Position numbers and translations under genes: made by a program. The notes under the pieces are model-generated. The model had not been told where the DNA came from and ran no database searches. It saw only the letters and a list, made by a program, of their open reading frames with translations. DNA of 28,070 nucleotides from a virus. Its lineage: Duplodnaviria > Heunggongvirae > Uroviricota > Caudoviricetes. The stretch lies in the IMG/VR virus record IMGVR_UViG_2695420596_000005, positions 1 to 28,070 of that record; one strand, written 5' to 3'. This document shows positions 1 through 25,223 of the stretch, piece after piece. How positions within the stretch are numbered: the first letter of the stretch is position 1; each line of letters begins with the position of its first letter.

Positions 1-609
1 ACCCTGACGGCGCTGGCAGAGCTTGCTACATCAGCAGATAAACTCCCATATTTTACAGGGGCAGATCGTGCCGCGTTAACCGCGTTGACAAGTGTTGGAC
101 GTGCCATTCTTGGTAAAACCAGCACTCAGGGAGTTCTTGATTACCTTGGTTTGGGGGAAGGCTCTGCACTGCCCGTTGGTGTACCTGTTCCGTGGCCCTC
201 AGCCACACCGCCAGCAGGGTGGCTGAAATGTAACGGTGCAGCATTTTCTTCTGAAATGTACCCAAAACTGGCAAAGGCCTACCCCACCAATAAATTACCG
301 GATTTACGCGGTGAATTTATCCGTGGCTGGGATGATGGGCGCGGGGTGGATGCCGGAAGGGGCATCTTAAGCATGCAGGGGTGGTTAACAGGAAGTCATT
401 ATCATAATATTCGGTCATGGGATGCGTGGGATAACACGGTGTTGGTGCCAAATGACAAAGGAGGGGATAGTCTGTTGTCGACAGATAACGCCGTCCGGCA
501 AGGTGCAATTAACGGTAGATTTACCAGTCAATACAGAACGGAATCCTCAGAGGGGAATGAAACCCACCCACGCAATATTGCCTTCAATTATATTGTGAGA
601 ACCGCATAA
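1..609 (+). CDS. Tail fibre protein, 3' portion (5' end off-window): constant region joined to variable C-terminal cassette Sv1
   Basis: Frame 1 is open from nt 1. Translation TLTALAELATSADKLPYFTG...GEGSALPVGVPVPW matches the internal sequence of the full-length fibre at 12506-14119. Ends ...NYIVRTA; stop overlaps the ATG of the next gene (ATAATG at 607-611). Confidence 0.8.
   Translation, partial: TLTALAELATSADKLPYFTGADRAALTALTSVGRAILGKTSTQGVLDYLGLGEGSALPVGVPVPWPSATPPAGWLKCNGAAFSSEMYPKLAKAYPTNKLPDLRGEFIRGWDDGRGVDAGRGILSMQGWLTGSHYHNIRSWDAWDNTVLVPNDKGGDSLLSTDNAVRQGAINGRFTSQYRTESSEGNETHPRNIAFNYIVRTA
134..159. other. hix/gix-like 26-bp recombination site A (TTCTTGATTACC-TT-GGTTTGGGGGAA)
   Basis: Two 12-bp half-sites around a 2-bp core, 10/12 match of the left half to the remembered hixL half-site TTCTTGAAAACC. 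Sequence identity with the inverted cassettes at 1695-1720 and 2134-2159 begins exactly here. Confidence 0.6.
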
Positions 610-1220
610 TGAATAACGCGATATTAAATGATGACCTTATTGCCGTACAGGCAGGAAACATCGTCGTTTATAACTATGATGGTGAGACACGGGAATATAT
701 TTCCGAATCAACTGAATATCTTGCTGTGGGTGTCGGTATTCCGGCAAATTCCTGTTTAGATGCCCCGGGCGCACATAAAGCGGGCTATGCTATCCGCCGT
801 TCGGAGAATTTAAGCTCATGGGAGTATGCGCCAGACCATCGTGGTGAAACCGTCTATAGCACTGACACGGGAAACACCGAAGAAATCACGGCGCTGGGTG
901 ACTACCCGAAAAATACAACCACTATCGCCCCGTTAACACCATACGATAAATGGGATGGTGAAAAATGGGTGACAGATACTGAGGCACAACATCGTGCTGC
1001 AGTAGAAGCGGCAGAAACCAAGCGCCAGTCACTGGCTGATGCGGCAATGGCTTCCATAAGTCTGATTCAGTTGAAGTTGCAGGCCGGGCGGAAGTTGACG
1101 CAGGCAGAAACCACCCGGCTTAATGCCGTGCTGGATTATATAGACGCGCTGAACGCAATGGATATAAACATGGCACCAGATATCAACTTGCCGGAAATAC
1201 CACTGGCAGCAGCCAGTTGA
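609..1220 (+). CDS. Tail fibre assembly protein (P2 gpG / Mu U-like)
   Basis: 203-aa ORF immediately after the fibre gene with overlapping stop/start. Family assignment is by position and remembered similarity of the C-terminal region to tail-fibre assembly chaperones. Confidence 0.8.
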   Translation: MNNAILNDDLIAVQAGNIVVYNYDGETREYISESTEYLAVGVGIPANSCLDAPGAHKAGYAIRRSENLSSWEYAPDHRGETVYSTDTGNTEEITALGDYPKNTTTIAPLTPYDKWDGEKWVTDTEAQHRAAVEAAETKRQSLADAAMASISLIQLKLQAGRKLTQAETTRLNAVLDYIDALNAMDINMAPDINLPEIPLAAAS

Positions 1221-1226
1221 ATATAA

Positions 1227-1703
1227 CTAAGCCGCCCTCACGATATAGTTAAATGCAATATTGCGGGGGCGGGTTTCACTACCACCTGTGTTACCAATAC
1301 TTCCTCGTGAATGAAGCGTTGGTGATGGAATCAAACTCCCTCCTGTATTTGTGGCATCAAGCCCCCTGCCTTGCGTATATGTTTTTTTGAAAATTGTGGC
1401 CAACTCCCATTCATCCTTTGTGTCATATCCATCGTTAGCTACAACAATATGGCGGTGTTTTTCCAACATCCCGTTTTGAATGCTCAATAAAGCGCGTGCC
1501 GCATCAATTCCTCGCCCATCATCCCAGCCACGGATAAATTCACCGCGTAAGTCTGGTAATTTATTGGTGGGGTAAGCCCTTGCCAGTTTTGGGTACTTTT
1601 CAGAAGAAAATGCTGCGCCGTTACATTTCAGCCATCCCGTTGGCGGCGTGGCTGAGGGCCATGGAACGGGCACACCAACGGGCAGTGCAGAGCCTTCCCC
1701 CAA
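1227..1703 (-). CDS. Promoterless alternative tail-fibre C-terminal cassette Sv2 (inverted orientation)
   Basis: No ATG; the frame opens at the recombination site and starts GEGSALPVGVPVPWPSATPP. Its 158 aa are identical to the C-terminus of the fibre at 12506-14119. Confidence 0.65.
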   Translation of the reverse strand: MGEGSALPVGVPVPWPSATPPTGWLKCNGAAFSSEKYPKLARAYPTNKLPDLRGEFIRGWDDGRGIDAARALLSIQNGMLEKHRHIVVANDGYDTKDEWELATIFKKTYTQGRGLDATNTGGSLIPSPTLHSRGSIGNTGGSETRPRNIAFNYIVRAA

Positions 1704-1720
1704 ACCAACGTTTTCATGCT
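1695..1720. other. hix/gix-like recombination site B, inverted relative to site A
   Basis: Reverse complement reads AGCATGAAAACG-TT-GGTTTGGGGGAA; the cassette-proximal half-site is identical to site A. Confidence 0.55.
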
Positions 1721-2199
1721 GCCCTTACGATGTAATTAAACGTAATATTACGAGGACGAATGGTTACATAATTAACCCCATCACCTCGTGAAGGCCCTGC
1801 AAATGAAAAACGGGAAAAGCCTGGTTGGTTAGAAACAATTTGGTCATAGTTATTGATTGAATGACCAGACCCAATGTCGAAATTACCTCCGTAATGAGAA
1901 AAACTTGTACCATCCTGCCCTGAAAGCAGGGTACGTCCCGCATCAATCCCGCGCCCATCATCCCAGCCACGGATAAATTCACCGCGTAAATCCGGTAATT
2001 TATTGGTGGGATAAGCCCTTGCCAGTCTGGGATACATTTCAGAAGAAAATGCTGCACCGTTACATTTCAGCCAGCCCGTTGGTGGTGTTGCTGAGGACCA
2101 CGGAACGGGCACACCAACGGGCAGTGCAGAGCCTTCCCCCAAACCAACGTTTTCGTTTTTATCCCTACCTATACCAACTCTGTATTTTTCACGAAACAA
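1714..2199 (-). CDS. Promoterless alternative tail-fibre C-terminal cassette Sv3 (inverted orientation)
   Basis: Shares the GLGEGSALPVGVPVPW...KLPDLRGEFIRGWDDGRGIDAGR constant stretch and the C-terminal NYIVRAA with the other cassettes, with a divergent middle. No ATG start at the site. Confidence 0.6.
   Translation of the reverse strand: MFREKYRVGIGRDKNENVGLGEGSALPVGVPVPWSSATPPTGWLKCNGAAFSSEMYPRLARAYPTNKLPDLRGEFIRGWDDGRGIDAGRTLLSGQDGTSFSHYGGNFDIGSGHSINNYDQIVSNQPGFSRFSFAGPSRGDGVNYVTIRPRNITFNYIVRAA
2134..2159. other. hix/gix-like recombination site C, inverted relative to site A and direct relative to B
   Basis: Reverse complement reads AAAACGAAAACG-TT-GGTTTGGGGGAA. Confidence 0.55.
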
Positions 2200-2213
2200 A
2201 GAGGATGTTTTTT

Positions 2214-2813
2214 ATGCAAATTGGCTATATTCGTGTGTCAACAAATGACCAGAACACGGATTTACAACGCAATGCACTGAACTGCGCAGGATGTGAACTG
2301 ATTTTTGAAGATAAAATCAGCGGAACGAAATCAGCCAGACCGGGATTGAAAAAACTGCTCAGAACGCTATCAGAAGGAGATACGCTGGTTGTCTGGAAGC
2401 TGGACAGACTGGGCAGAAGTATGAAACACCTGATCACGCTTATTGAGGAATTGCGGGAAAAAGGTGTTAATTTCCGTAGTCTGACGGACAGCATTGACAC
2501 ATCAACACCCATGGGGCGTTTCTTTTTTCACGTCATGGGGGCTTTAGCCGAAATGGAACGTGAATTAATTGTAGAGCGTACACTGGCCGGGCTGGCAGCA
2601 GCACGCGCACAAGGACGCATTGGCGGACGTCGCCCGAAGTTGACAAAAGAACAACACGAGCAAATAGCGAGGCTGATTAAAAACGGTCATGACAGGAAAC
2701 AACTGGCGATCATTTACGACATCGGCATATCGACGATTTATCGTTATCACCCTGTAGGCGATATACAGGCTGAAGAAACAACCAGGCAGACTCAGGAAAA
2801 TAAAAACCGCTAA
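2214..2813 (+). CDS. Serine DNA invertase (Gin/Hin/Pin/Cin family)
   Basis: MQIGYIRVSTNDQNTDLQRNAL... is the conserved resolvase/invertase N-terminus with the catalytic Ser in the RVST motif; C-terminal HTH. GAGG Shine-Dalgarno upstream of ATG 2214. Adjacent to three inverted 26-bp sites. Confidence 0.9.
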   Translation: MQIGYIRVSTNDQNTDLQRNALNCAGCELIFEDKISGTKSARPGLKKLLRTLSEGDTLVVWKLDRLGRSMKHLITLIEELREKGVNFRSLTDSIDTSTPMGRFFFHVMGALAEMERELIVERTLAGLAAARAQGRIGGRRPKLTKEQHEQIARLIKNGHDRKQLAIIYDIGISTIYRYHPVGDIQAEETTRQTQENKNR

Positions 2814-2839: not shown

Positions 2840-3334
2840 TCAAAACAGCCCTTTAACGGAGCTGGCCGCGCTGTTAAGGGATGATGTGACCTTATCTTTG
2901 AAGCCGGACAGCATATCACTGAACGATGAGGATTGCAGGCGCTCCCGCAAATCCTCATCACAGCGTTCAAGAGTCAGTGAAAATTCTATCTTTTTCGCCT
3001 TACCGTAGCGATCAAACTCGGAACGGGTCGTATTCGTTTCAGTCAGTACATACATGCCGTAAATCTGCCCGACACCATCAATCAGAGGCCAGGGGCGTCC
3101 TGTATATGCCTGCGTGGTCAGCAACGAAAGCGACACTTCGCCACCTGTAATTTCAGGATAAAGCACGCCGGAAAGCACGATGCGATCATCACCTGCGCCG
3201 ATATACTGCCAGCTTGCTGAACGGTTAACGCGTTCATTTTTCACATGCCGCCAGCTTTTGTTTTGCTGTAACTGCTGATGCGGCAATGTGCGCAGCTCAA
3301 AAACAAACATGCCGTAGATCATCATCATGGCCAT
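2840..3334 (-). CDS. U: Tail protein, P2 gpU-like
   Basis: 164 aa, MAMMMIYGMFVFELRTLPHQQLQQNKSWRHVKNERVNRSASWQYIGAG..., similar to remembered P2 gpU; lies directly downstream of the tape-measure gene. Confidence 0.8.
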   Translation of the reverse strand: MAMMMIYGMFVFELRTLPHQQLQQNKSWRHVKNERVNRSASWQYIGAGDDRIVLSGVLYPEITGGEVSLSLLTTQAYTGRPWPLIDGVGQIYGMYVLTETNTTRSEFDRYGKAKKIEFSLTLERCDEDLRERLQSSSFSDMLSGFKDKVTSSLNSAASSVKGLF

Positions 3335-3340
3335 GACTCC

Positions 3341-6148
3341 TCAATCTTTATCGTAAAAACTGCCACGTCCGGCACGGTCGCGTCGTTCCAATTCTGCCCT
3401 GACCATTTCACCGACCAGTTTCGCCAGTTCGCGGGGATTCTGCGTAACAACGTTATGCAGATGAACATGAATTTCACCGCCAAATCCGGAGACAACAGGC
3501 TCCCGGTTACGGGAAGTTGCAGGAACTGATGCCACTGGCGATCGTATGGCCTCCGCCACCGGGCGGGAGCTGGCCGCAACAACAGGGACCAGCGCCGGAG
3601 GCAGAGGAGTCGGGACCACGGGTGTGATGTTGATTGCGGAAGCAGGCTTACTGACCTGCGCAATCTTCCGCTCCTGCCACTCCCCACGAACAGCAAGTGC
3701 GCGGGGCAGATTCTTAAAGACAATATCGCCGGGGCCAATGCGTTTTTTCGTCTCATCAACCAGCTTACCTGTGTTATCAGCAATTTTGCTGAGTCTGCGT
3801 AGCGTACCGGTATTGCTGTCTGTGAGCGGTTTGTTGTCTTTGGGTTTATCACCTCCGGTGCCATTGCCATTTTCCACAGGCTTCGGCGGATTGATTTTCG
3901 CCAGGTCCCCCTGAAGCAAGGCAACCTTGTCCTGAAGAATGGCCGCACGCTGTGCGTCTTCGATTTTCTTGCGCGCCCTTTCCGCTTCATCCGGAAGGAC
4001 GCCAAGTTTTTCAAGTATCCACGCCAGCGTATCCAGTAGCATTTTTGCAGGCGTCAGAACAAGTTGTAACGCACCGCCAAGAACGTTACCGAATATCTCG
4101 CCAGCACTGGTACATTTATCCAGCGTTTCCTTGCTGGACTCCATCGGTGACAGCAGCGATTTAAACCAGTTAAACACCTGGCTGATCCCGCTTCCGATTG
4201 CGTCAAAAACAGGACCAAACCGTTCAAAGGTTTCGCGCAACGGGGCCAGCCTTTCCATAATCCCGCTGAACACCCCGGCAAAAAATGCCCTGATGGGATC
4301 CCAGTATTTCCAGATAAGAACGGCAGCTCCGGCAAGTGCAGCCACGATAAGACCAACCGGACTGAACAGCGCCCCGATAGCGCCTCCCAGTAAAGAAACG
4401 GAACCCGTCACCATTCCCCATAGTGCTGGCAGGACCCTGACAGCATTCATTGATCCGGTCAGGAGAGAAAAACCAAGACGCAGTTTTGCCAGCGGACCAG
4501 CAAGCACACCAATAGCCAGCGACAACGAGCCAACCGTTGCAGTCATTGCCAGCAACGCACCGCCTGCTATCAGTAGCTGGCGCGTCAGTGCCGGATGGGC
4601 CTGCGCCAGCGCCGTCACCCTTGATACCACCCGCGTGAGCCACTGCGTGACAGAACGCAGCGGACCGTCAATCAGATCTGCAATGCGGATGCGCAACCCT
4701 TCCCATGCACTGCCGAGTGATTTCAGATCGCCGTCAAGGTTGTTGGCCATAACCTTTGCTGTGCGTTCAGCCTCACCGCGCGCGCCTTCAAGTTCTTTTC
4801 TCAGTTTGGGTAAGGAACCGTCACCCGCTGCATCAACGAGCGCCATAAACGATGTGAAAGCCTCTTCTCCGGCAATGTCCTTAAAGAACGATACCCGGTC
4901 AACTTCCCCGTATTTGCGGGTGGCTTTATAAAGGTCGGCCAGCACATCCTCCATCGGGCGCATTTTGCCCCCGGCATCCGAGACGGACACGCCCAGCTCT
5001 TTCAGAGCTTCTGCCGCCGCCTTTGGCGGTGATGCCAGACGAGCCAGGCTGGCACGCATTGCCGTCCCGGCATCACTCCCTCTGATGCCCATATTCGCCA
5101 GCACGCCAGCCATCGCTGCGGCCTGCTCCAGCGATATTCCCAGCTTACCCGCCACCGGACCTGCATATTTCATGGTTTCGCCCAGTGCGCGAAGGTCAGT
5201 GTTGGTACGGGTAAACGCTGCGGTGAGTGTGTCACCGACCCGGTCCATCTGGTCAGCAGAAAGGCCGAACTGCGTCAGGATATTTGAGCCAATATCTGCC
5301 GTCTCGCCGAGATCCATACCGCCAGCCGTTGCCATGCTCAGCACTCCGGGAAGCGCAGCCTGAATGGCCTGCGGTGTGAAGCCAGCCATTGCAAGAAATG
5401 CCTGCCCACTGGCGGCATCGCCTGCGGTGAACTGCGTTTCAGAGCCAAGTTTTAACGCCTGCTCACGCAGCGCCTTAAACTGCGGGCTGTTCTGGTCGAT
5501 TCGCGTCAGCGCCTGAACGCGGGACATCTCTTTGCCGAACCCGATCGCGGGCTGCAAAAAACGCCCGGCAGCATAGCCGCCCGCCGCTGCCGCACCAATT
5601 GCCAGCGCACCACCTGTTTTCAGTTTTCCCGCGGTTTCCTGCGCGCGCGAATACCGCTCACGCGCCCGCGTTACACGCGCAAGCGCCTGCCGTTCGCGTT
5701 CAAGCTGGTTGTTGTACTGTTCGGTGCGTCTGATGGCCTGCTGGATGGTGTTATCGCTGCCTGTCAGGGAAATGCCGTGGCGTTTCAGCTCTCCGCCAAG
5801 TTCCCGCATTTTCTGAATTTCCCGTGTGCGCGATTCATTCAGGCGTTCAAGCCGGGTGCTTAACTGCTGCATCAGCTTTTGTTGTTTTTCGCTGAGCACT
5901 GTACCCGTGCGTTGTAACTGATTAAGAGCGTTAAGCTGGCGTCGTGCTTTCAATATGCCAGCATCCGCTTTACTGACAGCGTCACGGGCGCGCTCAAATG
6001 AACGCGCCTGACGCTCGAGATTTTTGATCGCCCCCTGCGTTCGCTGGATGGAGTCACCAAACTGCCCCATCAGGCGGCGGGCGTTTTCGGCAGGCCGGGT
6101 CAGCCTGTCAACGGCGCTGAAAGCGACCCGGATATCAAGAGTCTTCAT
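3341..6148 (-). CDS. T: Tail tape-measure protein, P2 gpT-like
   Basis: ~935 aa, Ala/Gly/Leu-rich with coiled-coil N-terminal part and hydrophobic glycine-rich central segment, positioned between E/E' and U. Start placed at ATG 6148 (MKTLDIRV); the tracked ORF begins at an in-frame GTG at 6184. Confidence 0.85.
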   Translation of the reverse strand: MKTLDIRVAFSAVDRLTRPAENARRLMGQFGDSIQRTQGAIKNLERQARSFERARDAVSKADAGILKARRQLNALNQLQRTGTVLSEKQQKLMQQLSTRLERLNESRTREIQKMRELGGELKRHGISLTGSDNTIQQAIRRTEQYNNQLERERQALARVTRARERYSRAQETAGKLKTGGALAIGAAAAGGYAAGRFLQPAIGFGKEMSRVQALTRIDQNSPQFKALREQALKLGSETQFTAGDAASGQAFLAMAGFTPQAIQAALPGVLSMATAGGMDLGETADIGSNILTQFGLSADQMDRVGDTLTAAFTRTNTDLRALGETMKYAGPVAGKLGISLEQAAAMAGVLANMGIRGSDAGTAMRASLARLASPPKAAAEALKELGVSVSDAGGKMRPMEDVLADLYKATRKYGEVDRVSFFKDIAGEEAFTSFMALVDAAGDGSLPKLRKELEGARGEAERTAKVMANNLDGDLKSLGSAWEGLRIRIADLIDGPLRSVTQWLTRVVSRVTALAQAHPALTRQLLIAGGALLAMTATVGSLSLAIGVLAGPLAKLRLGFSLLTGSMNAVRVLPALWGMVTGSVSLLGGAIGALFSPVGLIVAALAGAAVLIWKYWDPIRAFFAGVFSGIMERLAPLRETFERFGPVFDAIGSGISQVFNWFKSLLSPMESSKETLDKCTSAGEIFGNVLGGALQLVLTPAKMLLDTLAWILEKLGVLPDEAERARKKIEDAQRAAILQDKVALLQGDLAKINPPKPVENGNGTGGDKPKDNKPLTDSNTGTLRRLSKIADNTGKLVDETKKRIGPGDIVFKNLPRALAVRGEWQERKIAQVSKPASAINITPVVPTPLPPALVPVVAASSRPVAEAIRSPVASVPATSRNREPVVSGFGGEIHVHLHNVVTQNPRELAKLVGEMVRAELERRDRAGRGSFYDKD

Positions 6149-6396
6149 TGTCTGTATTCCCGCTGCGAAGTGCCGCCCGCTCACGCCAGCTAACCACTTC
6201 GCCGGGAGTCATCATGAAGATTTCGGCGGGCGACCAGTTAAAAATGGTGGCAATATCCGCCACCAGATCTTCGATGTGCTCAAAGCACACCAGGGTGATT
6301 ACGCTGCCGTCTCCTGCACGCTCTTCGCGCCAGAGTCTGGCTCGCTCATAAAATTTACAGCCACAGCGCACAACTGAATAAAATCGCGTGACGACA
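6135..6396 (-). CDS. E' extension in the -1 frame (putative E+E' frameshift product)
   Basis: An overlapping ORF in the -1 frame begins just 3' of an A7 run (T7 at 6396-6402 on the plus strand, codons ATT-AAA-AAA-ATG) at about codon 91 of E and runs to 6135. Confidence 0.45.
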
Positions 6397-11092: not shown

Positions 11093-12181
11093 TTACCTTG
11101 ACAAGTGAAAGGTTAGCGCCTCTCCGGAAAAGGAGCAAGTGCTTGTATGGGTCCACCACATATTGCAATTTTTATTCTCTTTTAAAATATATTCCACGGG
11201 CGTCATTAGTGCGAGCGCCTTGTGGGGTCTTTTGCTGTTATACAGCACCAGATATTCCGCCAGCTTCTGGTTAAATAGCGCCAGATCTTCAAAGAGTAAA
11301 ATCTCATTAAATTCAATAAACTGCTCTCTTAACGTCCGGTTAAAACGTTCACAGATAGCGTTCATTTTTGGCGTGTAGGGATAGGTCCAGAGGTGTTTGA
11401 TAGCGGCTTCCTGCAGCGTTTTGTCGAAGTTTCCCAGGAACTCTTTTCCGTTATCTGTGATTATCTGGCTGATACCGACCGGGAACAACCGGGCTGCGCG
11501 GCTGAAGAAGTGATTGACGATATCACTGTTGAGTGACGGCACAGCCAGCGCCAGCGCGTAATTGCTGCATTCGTCGATCATGGTGATGACATAGCGACGC
11601 AGTTCGCCCATTCTGAGCTCAATGGCGTCCATCCCAATGAGCTCACCTGTCTTTACCGGGCGGTAGTGCTTTGGCCTGCGGGGTTTGGCAGACCGCTTTT
11701 TGACAAGCAGTGCCTTCCCCCGCGATCCCAGACGCACAGGTATCATCCGCATTTTATCATGTGCGGCAGCGATCATTCTGCCGATGGTGGAAACACTCGG
11801 ACAGGCCAGATAGCGCTGTTCGCACCAGGGCTTCAGGCGAACAAAAATCTGCTCTTTACCGAGGTTCGGCAGCTCTGTCCTGAGGCGTCGAATCTCTTTC
11901 AGCACATCGGGATGCCAGTGTTTTTTTCGTCGCACCAGAGGTGCCTTACTGTGCGGGATTAGCCCCTCAGGTCCTTCCTTGTTCAGTAACTGACGCCACC
12001 AGTAAAGCGTGCGGCAGGACACGCCAAAGGCTTCAGAAGCTGCAGAAATACCGTGTTTATCCCAGAAGTGCAGAGCCTTCATTCTCATTGTTGCTATATC
12101 AGCCATCACTGAAAGCCTCAACGCATAATCGGCCGTTTGGTAGTACTTAGGATAGCCAACCATCAGATGCTGCATTTGCAT
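11093..12181 (-). CDS. DDE transposase (rve/integrase-core), IS481-family-like
   Basis: 362-aa ORF with N-terminal HTH region, ITDNGKEF and YxPxxN...E motifs typical of retroviral-integrase-type transposases. The last few codons probably read through into flanking DNA. Confidence 0.75.
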   Translation of the reverse strand: MQMQHLMVGYPKYYQTADYALRLSVMADIATMRMKALHFWDKHGISAASEAFGVSCRTLYWWRQLLNKEGPEGLIPHSKAPLVRRKKHWHPDVLKEIRRLRTELPNLGKEQIFVRLKPWCEQRYLACPSVSTIGRMIAAAHDKMRMIPVRLGSRGKALLVKKRSAKPRRPKHYRPVKTGELIGMDAIELRMGELRRYVITMIDECSNYALALAVPSLNSDIVNHFFSRAARLFPVGISQIITDNGKEFLGNFDKTLQEAAIKHLWTYPYTPKMNAICERFNRTLREQFIEFNEILLFEDLALFNQKLAEYLVLYNSKRPHKALALMTPVEYILKENKNCNMWWTHTSTCSFSGEALTFHLSR

Positions 12182-12216
12182 AGTGCAATCTCCCCTTACT
12201 TATCCGGAGGCAATTA
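11110..12216 (-). mobile_element. Insertion sequence, IS481-family-like (~1.1 kb)
   Basis: Single DDE transposase ORF. The right boundary is set where identity to the tfa copy at 940-1220 begins (12217/12218). The left boundary is approximate, set from an imperfect terminal inverted repeat (GTTAGCGCCTCTCCGGAAAAGG versus TAATTGCCTCCGGATAAGTAAGG). Confidence 0.6.
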
Positions 12217-12217
12217 A

Positions 12218-12499
12218 CCATACGATAAATGGGATGGTGAAAAATGGGTGACAGATACTGAGGCACAACATCGTGCTGCAGTAGAAGCGGCAGAAACCAA
12301 GCGCCAGTCACTGGCTGATGCGGCAATGGCTTCCATAAGTCTGATTCAGTTGAAGTTGCAGGCCGGGCGGAAGTTGACGCAGGCAGAAACCACCCGGCTT
12401 AATGCCGTGCTGGATTATATAGACGCGCTGAACGCAATGGATATAAACATGGCACCAGATATCAACTTGCCGGAAATACCACTGGCAGCAGCCAGTTGA
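12218..12499 (+). pseudogene. Truncated tail-fibre assembly gene (3' remnant only)
   Basis: Identical to the 3' part of the tfa at 609-1220 from nt ~940 onward; identity starts abruptly at the IS end, leaving the last ~83 codons without the native start. Confidence 0.75.
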
Positions 12500-12505
12500 A
12501 TATAA

Positions 12506-14119
12506 CTAAGCCGCCCTCACGATATAGTTAAATGCAATATTGCGGGGGCGGGTTTCACTACCACCTGTGTTACCAATACTTCCTCGTGAATGAAGCGTTG
12601 GTGATGGAATCAAACTCCCTCCTGTATTTGTGGCATCAAGCCCCCTGCCTTGCGTATATGTTTTTTTGAAAATTGTGGCCAACTCCCATTCATCCTTTGT
12701 GTCATATCCATCGTTAGCTACAACAATATGGCGGTGTTTTTCCAACATCCCGTTTTGAATGCTCAATAAAGCGCGTGCCGCATCAATTCCTCGCCCATCA
12801 TCCCAGCCACGGATAAATTCACCGCGTAAGTCTGGTAATTTATTGGTGGGGTAAGCCCTTGCCAGTTTTGGGTACTTTTCAGAAGAAAATGCTGCGCCGT
12901 TACATTTCAGCCATCCCGTTGGCGGCGTGGCTGAGGGCCATGGAACGGGCACACCAACGGGCAGTGCAGAGCCTTCCCCCAAACCAAGGTAATCAAGAAC
13001 TCCCTGAGTGCTGGTTTTACCAAGAATGGCACGTCCAACACTTGTCAACGCGGTTAACGCGGCACGATCTGCCCCTGTAAAATATGGGAGTTTATCTGCT
13101 GATGTAGCAAGCTCTGCCAGCGCCGTCAGGGTGGCATCCTTCGGTTGCTTACCCGCAAGCGCGTTAGTCATGGTGGTCGCAAAATTCGGGTCATTGCCCA
13201 GCGCCGCAGCCAGTTCGTTCAGCGTGTTCAGTGCATCAGGTGACGAATCTACAAGTGCGGCAATCGCGGCCATAACGAAAGCCGTGCTTGCGATCTGGGT
13301 ACTATTAGTCCCCTGTGGCGCTGTTGGTGTTGTTGGCGTTCCGGTCAGTGCCGGGCTGTTTAATGGTGCTTTCTTGTTCGTTTCATCCATTACCGCCTTA
13401 ACAGCTTTTGGTGTCGCTGCCAGCGTTTCAGACGTGCTGTTCGTGGCGCTACTGAGCTGAACAATTCCTTTTTGTGTAGTGGTGGCGTTCTGGGCGGTAT
13501 ATTTCCCGTTAGCCAGGTCATATGCAGCCTTAACCGCTTTCGGTGTTGCGGCCAGTGTTTCTGATTCACTGTTAATTGCACTGCTTAACTGAGTAAAACC
13601 TTTTACGGTCAGCGAGGCGTCCGGGTGACGTCGTGACTGTTCGTGCTCTGAGATTTTATCATCCACATATTTGCGGGTTGCCAGAACCACAGACGGGTCG
13701 ATTTTCAGCGTGATGGCTTCGGTGTTCGTGACAACCAGAATCATGCGGATAGTCTGGGTGCGTCCACTGCCTTCCTGCAACTGCGGTTTGTACGTTTCCG
13801 GGCAGTTTGCCACCGCAATGAGTACACCTTCATCATCATAAAGACCAATCTCACGGATCCAGAATCCTCCCTCGTTTTCAGGGATGATTTGCTCCGCAAT
13901 AATCTGGCTCTGATTGTTAGGGTCAACACTCAGAAGATTCAGCGGTGCAATGCGTTTCTGGTTAATCAGTTTTGTTTGTGCAGGGTCTGGTGTTGGTAAC
14001 ACACCATTTGCATCACCAACGGCCATTTGCGTCAGATTCAGCTTACTGCCGAGCATCGTCGCGTTAGCCAGTCGTGCCGCGCCCTGATTAGTCAGAATGG
14101 CGTAGTATTTCACTGTCAT
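12506..14119 (-). CDS. H: Tail fibre protein, P2 gpH-like N-terminus with the Sv2 C-terminal domain
   Basis: 537 aa. N-terminal two-thirds similar to remembered P2 H (AVANCPETYKP, EHEQSRRHPDASLTVKGFTQLSS, TPKAVKAVMDETNKKAPLNSPALTGTPT). C-terminal 158 aa identical to cassette 1227-1703. Confidence 0.9.
   Translation of the reverse strand: MTVKYYAILTNQGAARLANATMLGSKLNLTQMAVGDANGVLPTPDPAQTKLINQKRIAPLNLLSVDPNNQSQIIAEQIIPENEGGFWIREIGLYDDEGVLIAVANCPETYKPQLQEGSGRTQTIRMILVVTNTEAITLKIDPSVVLATRKYVDDKISEHEQSRRHPDASLTVKGFTQLSSAINSESETLAATPKAVKAAYDLANGKYTAQNATTTQKGIVQLSSATNSTSETLAATPKAVKAVMDETNKKAPLNSPALTGTPTTPTAPQGTNSTQIASTAFVMAAIAALVDSSPDALNTLNELAAALGNDPNFATTMTNALAGKQPKDATLTALAELATSADKLPYFTGADRAALTALTSVGRAILGKTSTQGVLDYLGLGEGSALPVGVPVPWPSATPPTGWLKCNGAAFSSEKYPKLARAYPTNKLPDLRGEFIRGWDDGRGIDAARALLSIQNGMLEKHRHIVVANDGYDTKDEWELATIFKKTYTQGRGLDATNTGGSLIPSPTLHSRGSIGNTGGSETRPRNIAFNYIVRAA
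12974..12999. other. hix/gix-like recombination site within the H gene (reverse complement identical to site A)
   Basis: TTCCCCCAAACC-AA-GGTAATCAAGAA is the exact reverse complement of 134-159. Confidence 0.55.
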
Positions 14120-16575: not shown

Positions 16576-16692
16576 GTGTTATAAATCAGGCGCTCATCTG
16601 CCTGGCTGATACCCAGCAGCTCACGTACCGGGTATCGCCATCATCGGTATCGGTGATGTCGTCCTCTGCGGGTCCGGGGTTGGTTCTGGCAA
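16576..16692 (-). CDS. Small acidic ORF (38 aa) in the M-V gap
   Basis: ATG at 16692 preceded by CAGGAGTG Shine-Dalgarno; encodes MSMVARTNPGPAEDDITDTDDGDTRYVSCWVSARQMSA. Not in the supplied track (too short). Confidence 0.2.
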
Positions 16693-23018: not shown

Positions 23019-25223
23019 TTACGTGTCGAGAGAAATTTGTGTGCGCAGTTGAATAGGATTCAGAATTGTATATCGCTGGCGAATAACATTATATAAATCA
23101 AAGTCTTTTACCCTTACGCTTATTACCATCGCATATTGCATATCAGGGGCTGAAACTCCCTTAACATGGCGCGAAGAATCTCGGGCATGATACCGTATAT
23201 CAAAAACTGGATCGCTTAATAATGTATCAGCACTGAACTTTTTGCTTCTGTGCAAACAAGTTTCCCACTTATGACCTTCACTCCTACACTCCCTTTCAGT
23301 CTTATACTGGCTTTTTTGACCAAAGAAATCATCTGTATCGGTATCGTCAAGGCCGAATCTTGGGCGGAAAGTTACCTGCATACCGGCCCTTGTATAGTTT
23401 ACTGAATGTTCAGGATCTACTGGGGTTTGAATGCATAAAGTAGCGGTAAGCTCAAATGCTTCGTCAAAGGGAACATCAGGGAATGGGATCGGTGCCCTTA
23501 AATATTTATTTTTTGCTAATGAACCATAGTAAATTACTGTAGCAGTATCATTTGGACAATCGATTAAAACGTTAGGATCCTCACTAAACCGTCCCCAACC
23601 GATATGTTCACGCGAATATTTTCTTGATGTTTCAGCATGATGAACAAGCAACGCTTTCAATGCAATGGTGTTCAATGGAGTTCCTGATAGAGCCGCAACT
23701 CCAGCGGCCGTTCTCAATGCTAATGGAGAGGCATAACTGGTTCCTTGAACTCCAACTATAGAACCAAGCAGAGGGTTGTAAGTGTAAAAAGGCTCGTCGT
23801 CGCTTCCACCAAAAATAACACCATCAGGTTTAACGAATCCGGGGCTTCTGCCTGGCCCAATACAGCTATATGGTGCCCGCCCCCATTTTTCACCGCTACG
23901 ATCAGCAGCACCAATCGCTAGCGCGTTTACCATATCGGAAGGAGGTTGTATTCTCGCTGCATCACCGTCCTCATTGCCATCATTCCCAACAGCAACAGTA
24001 AGTAATATCCCATGCTTAGCACAGATTTGGTCTAAAACAGCAGTCCATACATGAACCTCATCATCACCAATTGGAAGATGAGGACCAATACTTAGATTAG
24101 CGAACTTATAGTCACCACTATCAAGAACGGACTGTATTTTCTTAAGGACATCAAATAAATCCCAATTGCCATTGTCACCTGATGTCGGTGAAAGAACTCT
24201 ATAATGATCTACATTCATAAACGGTCTTTTAAAAGAAGGTGCATTTTCCTCGACACGTCCGAATAAGAAAGTGGATGTCACTTCATTACCGTGCTGCAAT
24301 AATAATCCGCTTGTTTCTTTGGTGTCTGGATACACGTATTCCGTAACCCAATTACTCAAGTCAGCTGTCCCCAAGCCACCATCAAAAATGGCAATACGTT
24401 CGGATTCAAGAACAGCTTTAGAATTAGGGAGCTCCGGTGTAACTATATTAGATAACTTTCTGACAATGTTCGGCTGAGTACACCTGAGAGACGGCATCGG
24501 CCGCACAACGCGGATTAATGAAAAATCGAGTGTTTTTTTCATATCTTCAGGTCGCGCGTGTGCAACGATGAAAGTCAGCCCACCAACTTGGATTCTACTT
24601 TTGTAATCAACAGAGACATCATATTGTGCCGCATAGCTAATATAGGCTTTAACGATATCATCGTCTTCAACCCCAGCATGAAGAACCACTTCAAATTTTA
24701 TCAAATCACTTTTCGCATGCTCAAAATTGCGTGCTCTCTCTTTTCCTTCAAAAAAGCTAACACTTTCAATTTCGATCAAATCCTTTTGTACGCCCTTCGG
24801 AGCTGTAGGGGAATTTAAAATTTCCTTAAATCTTATAACGGCATCATCATCACCGCTAACAAACAGTTGCGCCGTTACTAAGTCCTTATTCTGATCGCAC
24901 TGACGTGCCGCTTTCCGTGGGCGAATGATTACCTGACGGCTGCCGACATCCCGTAAACCTGTCGCTCTAAGCAATCCTTCCGGAAAGTAGCTTTTACCCA
25001 AAAACGCTGGGTGTAAAGTTAAATTGAATACACTCTCCCCCCTTGGCTTAGCCGCATCATCCAAACTGCGAAAGCGTGAGAGTAAAGTATCAATCTCTGG
25101 GTTTAAATGCTCCCTTACTTCTTCAAGAGTATAGGGATAGCGCTTACCATCCCTTCCTTTAGGCAAAGGTTCCTTTTTTGTCAGAACATGACCGTTACCT
25201 AAAAGTAAGTTCCTTTCCATCAT
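23019..25223 (-). CDS. S8 subtilisin-family serine protease with extra N- and C-terminal domains (IetS-like)
   Basis: 734 aa. Catalytic-triad motifs in subtilase order: Asp (RIAIFDGGLG), His (LLQHGNEVTS), Ser (GTSYASPLA), plus VAVGNDG. About 270 aa N-terminal and 250 aa C-terminal have no motif I recognise. ATG overlaps the upstream ATPase stop (ATGA). Confidence 0.8.
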   Translation of the reverse strand: MMERNLLLGNGHVLTKKEPLPKGRDGKRYPYTLEEVREHLNPEIDTLLSRFRSLDDAAKPRGESVFNLTLHPAFLGKSYFPEGLLRATGLRDVGSRQVIIRPRKAARQCDQNKDLVTAQLFVSGDDDAVIRFKEILNSPTAPKGVQKDLIEIESVSFFEGKERARNFEHAKSDLIKFEVVLHAGVEDDDIVKAYISYAAQYDVSVDYKSRIQVGGLTFIVAHARPEDMKKTLDFSLIRVVRPMPSLRCTQPNIVRKLSNIVTPELPNSKAVLESERIAIFDGGLGTADLSNWVTEYVYPDTKETSGLLLQHGNEVTSTFLFGRVEENAPSFKRPFMNVDHYRVLSPTSGDNGNWDLFDVLKKIQSVLDSGDYKFANLSIGPHLPIGDDEVHVWTAVLDQICAKHGILLTVAVGNDGNEDGDAARIQPPSDMVNALAIGAADRSGEKWGRAPYSCIGPGRSPGFVKPDGVIFGGSDDEPFYTYNPLLGSIVGVQGTSYASPLALRTAAGVAALSGTPLNTIALKALLVHHAETSRKYSREHIGWGRFSEDPNVLIDCPNDTATVIYYGSLAKNKYLRAPIPFPDVPFDEAFELTATLCIQTPVDPEHSVNYTRAGMQVTFRPRFGLDDTDTDDFFGQKSQYKTERECRSEGHKWETCLHRSKKFSADTLLSDPVFDIRYHARDSSRHVKGVSAPDMQYAMVISVRVKDFDLYNVIRQRYTILNPIQLRTQISLDT

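Follow-up and report, generated by a model that had tools for sequence, protein, structure and literature searches.

The window analysed here, a stretch of 28,070 nucleotides (IMG/VR record IMGVR_UViG_2695420596_000005), opens with an array of alternative tail-fibre tips followed by the gene for a DNA invertase. The carrier of this array is the P2-type (P88/Xuanwuvirus-like) prophage of the E. coli strain EPEC E2348/69, from whose element the window differs by 2 SNPs per 4000 nt and one inversion. Full colinearity with the E2348/69 element was considered and dropped, as the two are colinear only up to position 11146. Position 1 corresponds approximately to the end of contig CXZG01000006.1. The array and its surroundings comprise the following features.

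1–147, plus strand: Hc, the constant part of the P2-type tail-fibre gene H, of which the window has the 3′ end (E2348/69 H matched at 100%)
134–159, plus strand: site A, TTCTTGATTACC TT GGTTTGGGGGAA, within the fibre reading frame
148–609, plus strand: cassette Sv1, 153 codons, ending in NYIVRTA, fused to Hc in the isomer present in the window
609–1220, plus strand: tfa, the sole tail-fibre assembly (chaperone) gene, its ATG overlapping the Sv1 stop codon (Pfam Caudo_TAP, E 1.9e-31)
1227–1706, minus strand: cassette Sv2, 159 codons, ending in NYIVRAA, convergent with tfa
1695–1720, minus strand: site B, reverse complement AGCATGAAAACG TT GGTTTGGGGGAA, its outer half overlapping the Sv3 stop codon
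1714–2145, minus strand: cassette Sv3, 143 codons, ending in NYIVRAA
2134–2159, minus strand: site C, reverse complement AAAACGAAAACG TT GGTTTGGGGGAA
2214–2813, plus strand: intact Gin/Hin (Din)-family serine DNA invertase gene, 199 aa (Pfam Resolvase, E 1.5e-51, and HTH_7)
2803–2832, no strand assigned: hairpin with a 12-bp stem between the convergent invertase and gpU genes, followed by a T-run on the minus strand

Sites A, B and C are imperfect 26-bp dyads of the Gin/Hin type that share a TT core and the inner half-site GGTTTGGGGGAA. Their outer halves follow the pattern ..A(A/T)(A/T)AC(C/G), and the outer-half consensus in 234 related sites, AAAAC(G/C), mirrors the inner GGTTT. The initial annotation had placed three hix/gix-like sites in this region, and they are found there with the TT core, A on the plus strand and B and C on the minus strand. 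They do not form the full set: the window has four copies of the 16-mer TTGGTTTGGGGGAAGG, where shuffles predict 0.00, and the fourth copy (12972–12987, minus strand) points to a further site at 12974–12999 that had been missed. The invertase gene, also recognized at the outset as a Gin/Hin-family member next to the array, is intact. Its product aligns over its full length with Mu Gin (PDB 4M6F/3UJ3; 73.5% identity over 185 aa, E about 1e-90) and keeps the catalytic serine, in YIRVSTNDQ. Din-family systems rely on an enhancer in cis to which Fis binds and which is usually found towards the 5′ end of the invertase gene, and the switch in the window would presumably depend on Fis and such an enhancer too. 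Among 39 invertase genes, synonymous divergence is 0.19–0.41 in codons 1–36 versus 0.41–0.62 elsewhere; this modest dip may be a weak hint of an embedded enhancer, but constraints on translation start would account for it too.

The three cassettes are built alike. All begin with GLGEGSALPVGVPVPW, each carries the same inner half-site and collar-domain head at its start, and each closes with RPRNIxFNYIVRxA, the last residues being NYIVR(T/A)A throughout. The complete H gene of E2348/69, 1596 nt long, contains the Pfam domains Phage_tail_fib, Phage_fiber_2 and Collar; PGAP annotates Sv3 as a partial gene without an N-terminus. The cassettes were described at first as promoterless, with a common junction and an NYIVRxA end, and this description is borne out. 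A scan of the invertible DNA for sigma-70-like promoters found none, a weakly informative result as P2 Ogr-type late promoters lie outside the scope of the scan. In a three-way DNA alignment there is no similarity outside the sites; it sets in exactly at the central TT, continues for ~225 nt, is gone by mid-cassette and returns for ~45 nt at the 3′ end. The expectation that the shared sequence would end at the sites holds on their outer side, where it stops at the central TT, and fails on the inner side, where the repeats run for 215–240 nt at 88–92% identity. The variable parts have pN/pS values of 0.25 (Sv1) and 0.13 (Sv2), and all cassette clusters in the family fall within 0.00–0.34. Judged by these ratios, purifying selection acts on cassettes throughout the family, Sv2 included.

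What is the evidence that the array inverts? Exchange between A and B or between A and C had been proposed to fuse Sv2 or Sv3 in frame to the constant fibre region; both predicted fusions to Hc are indeed in frame and both products are present in public assemblies. The A × B state, with Sv2 fused to Hc, is found in ASZS01000001.1 and JBAMFK010000401.1, and the Sv1 state of the window in CP059840.2. The A × C state, with Sv3 fused to Hc, is matched by NC_011601.1 and LT903847.1 in their nucleotide sequence and by LT827011.1 in its junction. Sites B and C become mutually inverted after A × C, and B × C then gives an arrangement in which Sv3 is expressed with tfa forward. The initial three-isomer picture, which missed this arrangement, was incomplete; the reachable isomers are Sv1/tfa forward, Sv2/tfa reversed, Sv3/tfa reversed and Sv3/tfa forward. 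Three of these four predicted isomers are present in public assemblies of the element, and each isomer that was checked shows 2–5 mismatches per 4000 nt against the product of exchange at the central TT.

Goldberg et al. 2014 (Genome Med 6:112, PMC4272514) characterized the locus by sequencing and PCR; they describe a P2-like prophage that carries a ‘shufflon’ of four variants, with three inverted repeats of 215 bp and 92% identity, three alternative C-termini, and inversions at NC_011601.1 1891695–1893703 (90 ± 3% forward) and 1892127–1893703 (49 ± 37% forward). The locus in the window agrees with theirs in coordinates, in the three inverted repeats, in the four variants and in the three C-termini, and the centre of site A is NC_011601.1 position 1891695, the start of the published inversion; the window differs in coming from a different assembly (CXZG01000006.1) and in having Sv1 fused to Hc. 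In its main text and supplement, that paper leaves the 26-bp sites undefined and the tfa gene undiscussed. PCR for both orientations, the check suggested by the initial annotation, is provided by the same study, in which four variants coexist in E2348/69 cultures. Could the orientations in the databases instead be repeat assembly artefacts of a locus that is fixed in cells? Short-read assemblers break or misjoin at such repeats, many IMG/VR contigs end at cassettes, and L010 has both orientations. However, the inversion that was predicted is precisely what distinguishes closed genomes of one and the same strain, and the published PCR and read pairs for four coexisting variants already contradict an artefact, to which we attach practically no probability. 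The locus is a genuine, active DNA-inversion switch that swaps three tips on one tail-fibre gene, and the core of the initial reading (a Gin/Hin-type invertase, three sites and alternative 3′ fibre cassettes) is supported. The locus itself has been in print since 2014 and the type of system has been known since about 1990.

Polymorphisms between the repeat copies all travel with their own cassette in all three public isomers, which places the crossover within window positions 146–182, a 37-nt interval at the outer edge of the 215–240-nt homology. It had been thought that repeats extending well beyond 26 bp would speak against site-specific inversion; this reasoning is invalid here, as the repeats are of that length and yet the crossover maps to the site. 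The same repeats raise the question of whether RecA-dependent homologous recombination between them, rather than the invertase acting at the 26-bp sites, brings about the exchange. They are long enough for such a process, and the enzyme behind inversion was left untested when the 215-bp repeats were described by Goldberg et al. 2014. Nevertheless, we regard homologous recombination as very improbable: crossovers are confined to the edge of the homology, the similarity of the copies stops exactly at the central TT, this dinucleotide is kept in 231 of the 234 related sites, an intact Gin homologue adjoins the array, and minority isomers at 10–50% in single-colony cultures seem far above expectation for diverged 200-bp repeats.

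Based on these observations, we propose, with high confidence, that an E. coli prophage of the P2 type (P88/Xuanwuvirus-like) carries at this locus a multiple DNA-inversion switch of the Min type. In this switch, the constant 5′ part of H ends in the Gin/Hin-type site A, 3′ of which lie three promoterless tip cassettes, Sv1 in forward and Sv2 and Sv3 in reverse orientation. The invertase encoded beside the array acts on any pair of inverted sites, exchanging strands at their central TT, and the exchanges A × B, A × C and, after A × C, B × C generate the four isomers, each setting one tip in frame behind Hc. As there is one tip per isomer, a population of lysogens would release particles differing in receptor specificity, a form of host-range bet-hedging in which the tips presumably confer different host ranges. 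All tips would presumably share one generic Tfa chaperone, whose gene lies within the invertible DNA.

How does this switch compare with known ones? The p15B Min multiple-inversion system, reportedly the work of Sandmeier, Iida, Arber and co-workers in 1990–1992, combines a Din-family serine invertase, more than two crossover sites and one constant 5′ fibre part with several 3′ cassettes, and all of these recur in the window. The array matches this type of multiple inversion, with more than two sites, more than two fibre 3′ ends and overlapping segments; the p15B system has six sites and cassettes, whereas the array has three, and resides on a P1-type plasmid prophage rather than a P2-type integrated one. 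With the Mu G (Gin/gix) and P1 C (Cin/cix) segments the window shares 26-bp sites with a 2-bp core, a site inside the fibre gene and an inversion that swaps the 3′ end. P1 likewise has long inverted repeats with the crossover at their outer ends. Mu and P1, however, have two each of sites, cassettes and assembly genes (Sv-U, U′-Sv′), so that every cassette is followed by its own assembly gene, whereas in the array a single tfa accompanies three cassettes, and some isomers therefore carry tfa antisense. The R64 shufflon, which acts on the pilus adhesin gene pilV through the tyrosine recombinase Rci and sfx sites, resembles the window in logic only: both use multiple inversions to place alternative C-termini on a constant part and both concern cell-surface specificity. 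The recombinase in the window is a serine resolvase/invertase by Pfam and its target a phage fibre, and the label ‘shufflon’ used in the initial annotation is accordingly a loose one, R64-type shufflons using a tyrosine recombinase.

Farther along, the window holds a second set of fibre sequences that bears on the present-day role of the switch.

11147–12216, minus strand: IS481-family element, 1070 bp (transposase ORF 11093–12181; rve domain)
12217–12499, plus strand: second tfa copy, truncated by the IS element to a 3′ fragment (L095 has a gene call of 110 aa for it)
12506–14119, minus strand: second, complete H gene, an Hc-Sv2 fusion of 537 aa
12974–12999, minus strand: fourth site, A′, an exact copy of site A in inverted orientation, joining the second Hc to the second Sv2 copy

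The second Sv2 and the neighbouring tfa fragment form a 771-nt exact duplicate of window 938–1708. Through the IS481-family element, the prophage end with ogr/hok is connected to a point inside the second tfa copy; in other strains an annotated IS481 family transposase adjoins ogr. As a side observation, sites A and A′, being inverted to each other, enclose a 12.8-kb segment. Compared with the E2348/69 locus, the window has the additional Hc-Sv2 copy, the IS481-family element and a 2.9-kb deletion that removes S, R, the lysis genes, X and most of L from the prophage copy with V-W-J-I-Hc. The prophage in this genome thus appears defective, and the switch may not matter there for virions. In keeping with this, the switch could be a relic on a defective, rearranged prophage, flipping without affecting infectious particles; such a reading is compatible with the inversion mechanism and disputes only its present-day function. 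The deleted V-W-J-I-Hc copy is parted by the IS481-family element from the half with sheath, tube and invertase, and the second tfa copy is truncated. Conversely, the draft contig ends 147 nt from site A and some of the odd layout could thus be an assembly path through coexisting isomers, close relatives of the element in other strains are complete, and selection on the cassettes is purifying throughout the family. On balance we consider a relic possible but less likely than not.

A survey of the family, which spans related prophages and P1-like phage-plasmids, found 2 to at least 9 cassettes per array, always with one tfa, in either orientation; the cassette/tfa/invertase module is 84–89% identical in DNA to that of the P1-like phage-plasmids. 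The single-tfa layout, noted at first as a departure from the Mu G segment, is the family norm and not peculiar to this locus, and the classical two-tfa layout is held by more distant relatives (tfa 78–82% identical). The statement that the only tfa is inverted away when Sv2 or Sv3 is expressed is correct for both single-step products and does not extend to the Sv3/tfa-forward isomer reached through B × C; of the four isomers, the one with Sv2 and one of the pair with Sv3 have tfa running antisense to the fibre operon. The array holds no second tfa remnant, the distance from the tfa stop to the Sv2 stop being 6 bp. The Tfa protein (WP_001057723.1) is identical across strains with different cassette sets. 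That one Tfa serves all tips is suggested by two-orientation relatives, in which the same Tfa family (78–82% identical) lies directly 3′ of at least 14 different cassette clusters, Sv2-like ones included; Tfa thus appears to be a generic chaperone for these tips. Searching the PDB with the Tfa sequence returned no match, and a literature search on how arrays with several cassettes are supplied with the chaperone yielded nothing of relevance.

How would the chaperone be supplied when its gene is reversed? The orientation of tfa in assemblies (10 co-oriented, 12 anti) was not taken to bear on function: lysogens keep their late genes silent, and the counts thus reflect only the inversion equilibrium. 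Read-through into tfa from the convergent tail operon was also considered; the T-tailed hairpin after gpU, terminator-like for the tail operon, argues against it, and P1-like carriers do not have that operon. With tfa antisense, no sigma-70-like promoter in the invertible DNA and this terminator-like hairpin, one Tfa for all tips would be left without an expression route in those isomers. The Tfa family is paired in cis with many cassettes, yet about half of the isomers seen in assemblies have tfa antisense, always so when Sv2 is fused, and the Sv2 sequence is under purifying selection; one of three options would follow. Tips of the NYIVR type may fold without Tfa. Alternatively, tfa may be expressed whichever way it points, be it through a late promoter that has escaped recognition, through read-through, or through other copies of the genome or other prophages acting in trans. 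Finally, a large share of bursts may be fibre-defective, a cost of the switch that is tolerated. That the array tips do not depend on a co-transcribed chaperone is a suggestion we advance tentatively, as one that may well prove wrong.

What are the implications of this locus? Tail-fibre switches determine which bacteria a temperate phage or tailocin can target. The general picture is unchanged by the window, since the literature already covers this locus with its three repeats and the coexistence of four variants, and the Min-type architecture has long been known. The site-level account of 26-bp sites, TT core and crossover interval may be useful, as may the survey result of one generic tfa per array of up to at least nine cassettes. 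This survey sharpens the question of how the chaperone is supplied when tfa is flipped, which is relevant to cassette-based engineering of phage and tailocin host range. Tfa-free folding of the tips or orientation-independent expression of tfa, if either were true, would be new for fibres of the Mu/P2 type.

The analysis confirms what the initial annotation described and supports its interpretation: tail-fibre tips are switched here by an active multiple-inversion system of the Min type with a Gin-family invertase. The alternative tips (Sv1 to Sv3) and the other features of the switch are arranged as follows.

Features of the switch
Window start, ahead of Sv1: 3'-terminal 147 nt of Hc, the constant region of the P2-type tail-fibre gene H
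148-609, + strand: Sv1 tip cassette
609-1220, + strand: tfa, tail-fibre assembly (chaperone) gene; its ATG overlaps the Sv1 stop codon
1227-1706, - strand: Sv2 tip cassette
1714-2145, - strand: Sv3 tip cassette
2214-2813, + strand: recombinase gene, 199 aa
2803-2832: terminator-like hairpin with a 12-bp stem, T-tailed on the - strand, located where the invertase and gpU genes converge and overlapping the invertase 3' end
134-159, + strand: site A, in cassette orientation TTCTTGATTACC TT GGTTTGGGGGAA
1695-1720, - strand: site B, in cassette orientation AGCATGAAAACG TT GGTTTGGGGGAA
2134-2159, - strand: site C, in cassette orientation AAAACGAAAACG TT GGTTTGGGGGAA

Pfam assigns Phage_tail_fib, Phage_fiber_2 and Collar domains to the full H protein, a Collar domain to each of Sv2 and Sv3, and Caudo_TAP to the tfa product. 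The recombinase, initially annotated as a Gin/Hin-family invertase, deserves that name: it carries Resolvase and HTH_7 domains and can be aligned over its whole length to Mu Gin (PDB 4M6F/3UJ3; E ~1e-90), at 73.5% identity over 185 residues, rising to 81% within the catalytic domain, with the YIRVSTNDQ serine motif retained.

All three of the 26-bp sites given in the initial annotation are present, and the 16-mer formed by the core and inner half occurs four times in the window and never in 100 shuffles. A three-way alignment of the cassettes, the check suggested in the initial annotation, places the start of similarity at the central TT, with none outside the sites. Inward from the TT the cassettes are nearly identical over ~225 nt, corresponding to the head of the collar domain; their middles diverge, and ~45 nt encoding RPRNIxFNYIVRxA are again common at the 3' end. 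The initial annotation had named repeats running well beyond 26 bp as something that would refute the switch. The repeats do reach 215-240 nt at 88-92% identity, in the inward direction only, yet the model stands, as the crossover maps to the outer edge of the homology.

The first 2900 nt of the window differ by one mismatch from an assembly (CP059840.2) of E2348/69, an EPEC strain with the same P2-type prophage. We constructed the sequences that exchange at the central TT should yield and sought them in public assemblies. Both LT827011.1 and the E2348/69 reference, NC_011601.1, contain the A x C junction as a single-piece match at 100%; across 4000 nt, inverting 148-2145 of the window reproduces NC_011601.1 and LT903847.1, bar two SNPs. 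The A x B product is found in ASZS01000001.1 and JBAMFK010000401.1 (2 and 5 mismatches per 4000, respectively), and Hc-Sv2 followed by inverted tfa has single-piece matches in further strains. Because the bases that tell the repeat copies apart all remain with their own cassette in the isomers, the crossover is confined between 146, the base left of the core, and 183, the first inner difference. This extreme outer edge of the repeat homology is where a site-specific enzyme, and not homologous recombination, would be predicted to act. The anticipated fusions of Sv2 and Sv3 to Hc are thus present in assemblies, and both are in frame, giving fibres of 537 aa and 521 aa, respectively, beside 531 aa for Sv1. 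Two single bases of the window, 1395 and 3430, differ from the E2348/69 assemblies; the former (T vs C) is synonymous in Sv2, and a second Sv2 copy, around 12674, also has T.

Neither this kind of switch nor this particular locus is new. Sequencing of single-colony E2348/69 cultures revealed "two interlaced funnels" in the P2-like prophage. Three inverted repeats with partial homology were identified there and four variants deduced, with three alternative C-termini; all four variants were confirmed by PCR and the locus was named a shufflon (Goldberg et al. 2014, Genome Med 6:112). Table S1 of that paper lists NC_011601.1 1891695-1893703 (90 +/- 3% forward) and 1892127-1893703 (49 +/- 37% forward), with repeats of 215 bp and 92% identity. 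Position 1891695 corresponds to site A, and the remaining published coordinates lie within about 8 bp of sites B and C; therefore the locus, its mechanism class and its heterogeneity within populations are on record.

The window comes from the end of draft contig CXZG01000006.1 (GCA_001283165.1); it begins at about the contig edge, 147 nt before the centre of site A. This break at invertible repeats may reflect mixed isomers in the sequenced culture. Colinearity with E2348/69 ends at 11146, and the following features lie beyond.

Features beyond the colinear part
11147-12216: IS481-family element, 1070 bp, after ogr and adjoined by a truncated second tfa copy
12217-12987: exact 771-nt duplicate of 938-1708 (tfa 3' part and Sv2)
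12974-12999, - strand: fourth site, A', identical to site A, joining the duplicate to a full Hc on the minus strand
12506-14119, - strand: second H gene copy, this one complete and with Hc fused to Sv2, then I, J, W, V
23019-25223, - strand: S8-family peptidase gene, 734 aa, beside the portal gene, far end of the prophage

Since A and A', 12.8 kb apart, are mutually inverted, a large inversion between them is conceivable. After V, 2.9 kb present in the E2348/69 prophage have been deleted (junction 16629-16637, 9-bp overlap; missing segment corresponding to L091 34677-37552). S, R, the lysis genes, X and most of L are lost with them, so in this strain the prophage copy bearing baseplate and fibre genes is probably defective. 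The order then continues with M, N, O, P, Q and the peptidase gene, which looks like cargo. The non-colinear layout may reflect genuine rearrangement in a prophage that is now defective, or may partly be an assembly path through coexisting isomers.

Inversion at A x C leaves sites B and C facing each other and thereby allows B x C inversion. Four isomers follow.

Isomers of the switch
1: Sv1 expressed, tfa forward
2: Sv2 expressed, tfa reversed
3: Sv3 expressed, tfa reversed
4: Sv3 expressed, tfa forward, 3' of silent Sv1

The initial annotation listed the first three and missed the fourth. Its statement that tfa is inverted away when Sv2 or Sv3 is expressed holds for Sv2 and for one Sv3 isomer, but not for the other. 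Sv2 alone can never share the orientation of tfa, since this pair is convergent within one segment.

How general is the single chaperone gene? Eighty IMG/VR loci with Tfa and E. coli genome hits were mapped by tblastn and site search. In close relatives, whose tfa is at least 83% identical, the arrays hold from 2 to at least 9 cassettes of the collar type, at least seven types of which are seen fused to Hc, with exactly one tfa each and L010 as sole exception. In that contig (IMGVR_UViG_2541047915_000010, 3600-7200) two tfa copies lie in opposite orientation among cassettes ordered like two concatenated isomers, probably a misassembly of a mixed population. The conserved core of close relatives is one cassette (usually Sv1), tfa and one convergent cassette (usually Sv2), with tfa co-oriented with Hc in 10 loci and opposed in 12. 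The p15B Min system was described in a P1-like phage-plasmid setting, and likewise the present module also sits in P1-like phage-plasmids such as pZ0117EC0062-2. Across all related loci the TT core is found in 231/234 sites, the outer half-site consensus AAAAC(G/C) mirrors the inner GGTTT, and 187 intact cassettes form 25 clusters, every one under purifying selection (pN/pS 0.00-0.34; variable part only, Sv1 0.25, Sv2 0.13, Sv3 0.11). In contrast to the single-tfa close relatives, more distant ones (tfa 78-82% identical) retain the classical Mu-like layout, Sv-tfa then convergent tfa'-Sv', and in them the same Tfa family immediately follows cassettes of at least 14 different clusters, Sv2-like ones included; JP538 is an example. 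Two loci, L097 (JP538) and L098 (O157:H7 FRIK944), carry at about 3267-6350 a segment of the classical two-orientation type, in which Hc is joined to a collar-type cassette and followed by tfa and then by a convergent tfa' with a gp53-like-domain cassette. Because this segment sits on the same prophage backbone, single-tfa arrays and two-tfa segments have been exchanged on one backbone.

What are the implications for the supply of Tfa? The survey, which puts Tfa behind many cassette clusters, speaks for Tfa as a chaperone of generic action on these tips and for its usual presence in cis to tips of the Sv2 type. Within the arrays, however, tfa is antisense in every Sv2-expressed state and in one of the two Sv3 isomers. 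A search of the invertible DNA for a sigma-70-like promoter found none, the hairpin at 2803-2832 stands between the array and the convergent tail operon, and P1-like carriers lack that operon altogether. The tips may tolerate a lack of Tfa, tfa may be expressed by a route not visible in the sequence, or the bursts from these isomers may be defective. The literature examined does not address tfa supply in the inverted state; every other part of the finding already has an explanation.
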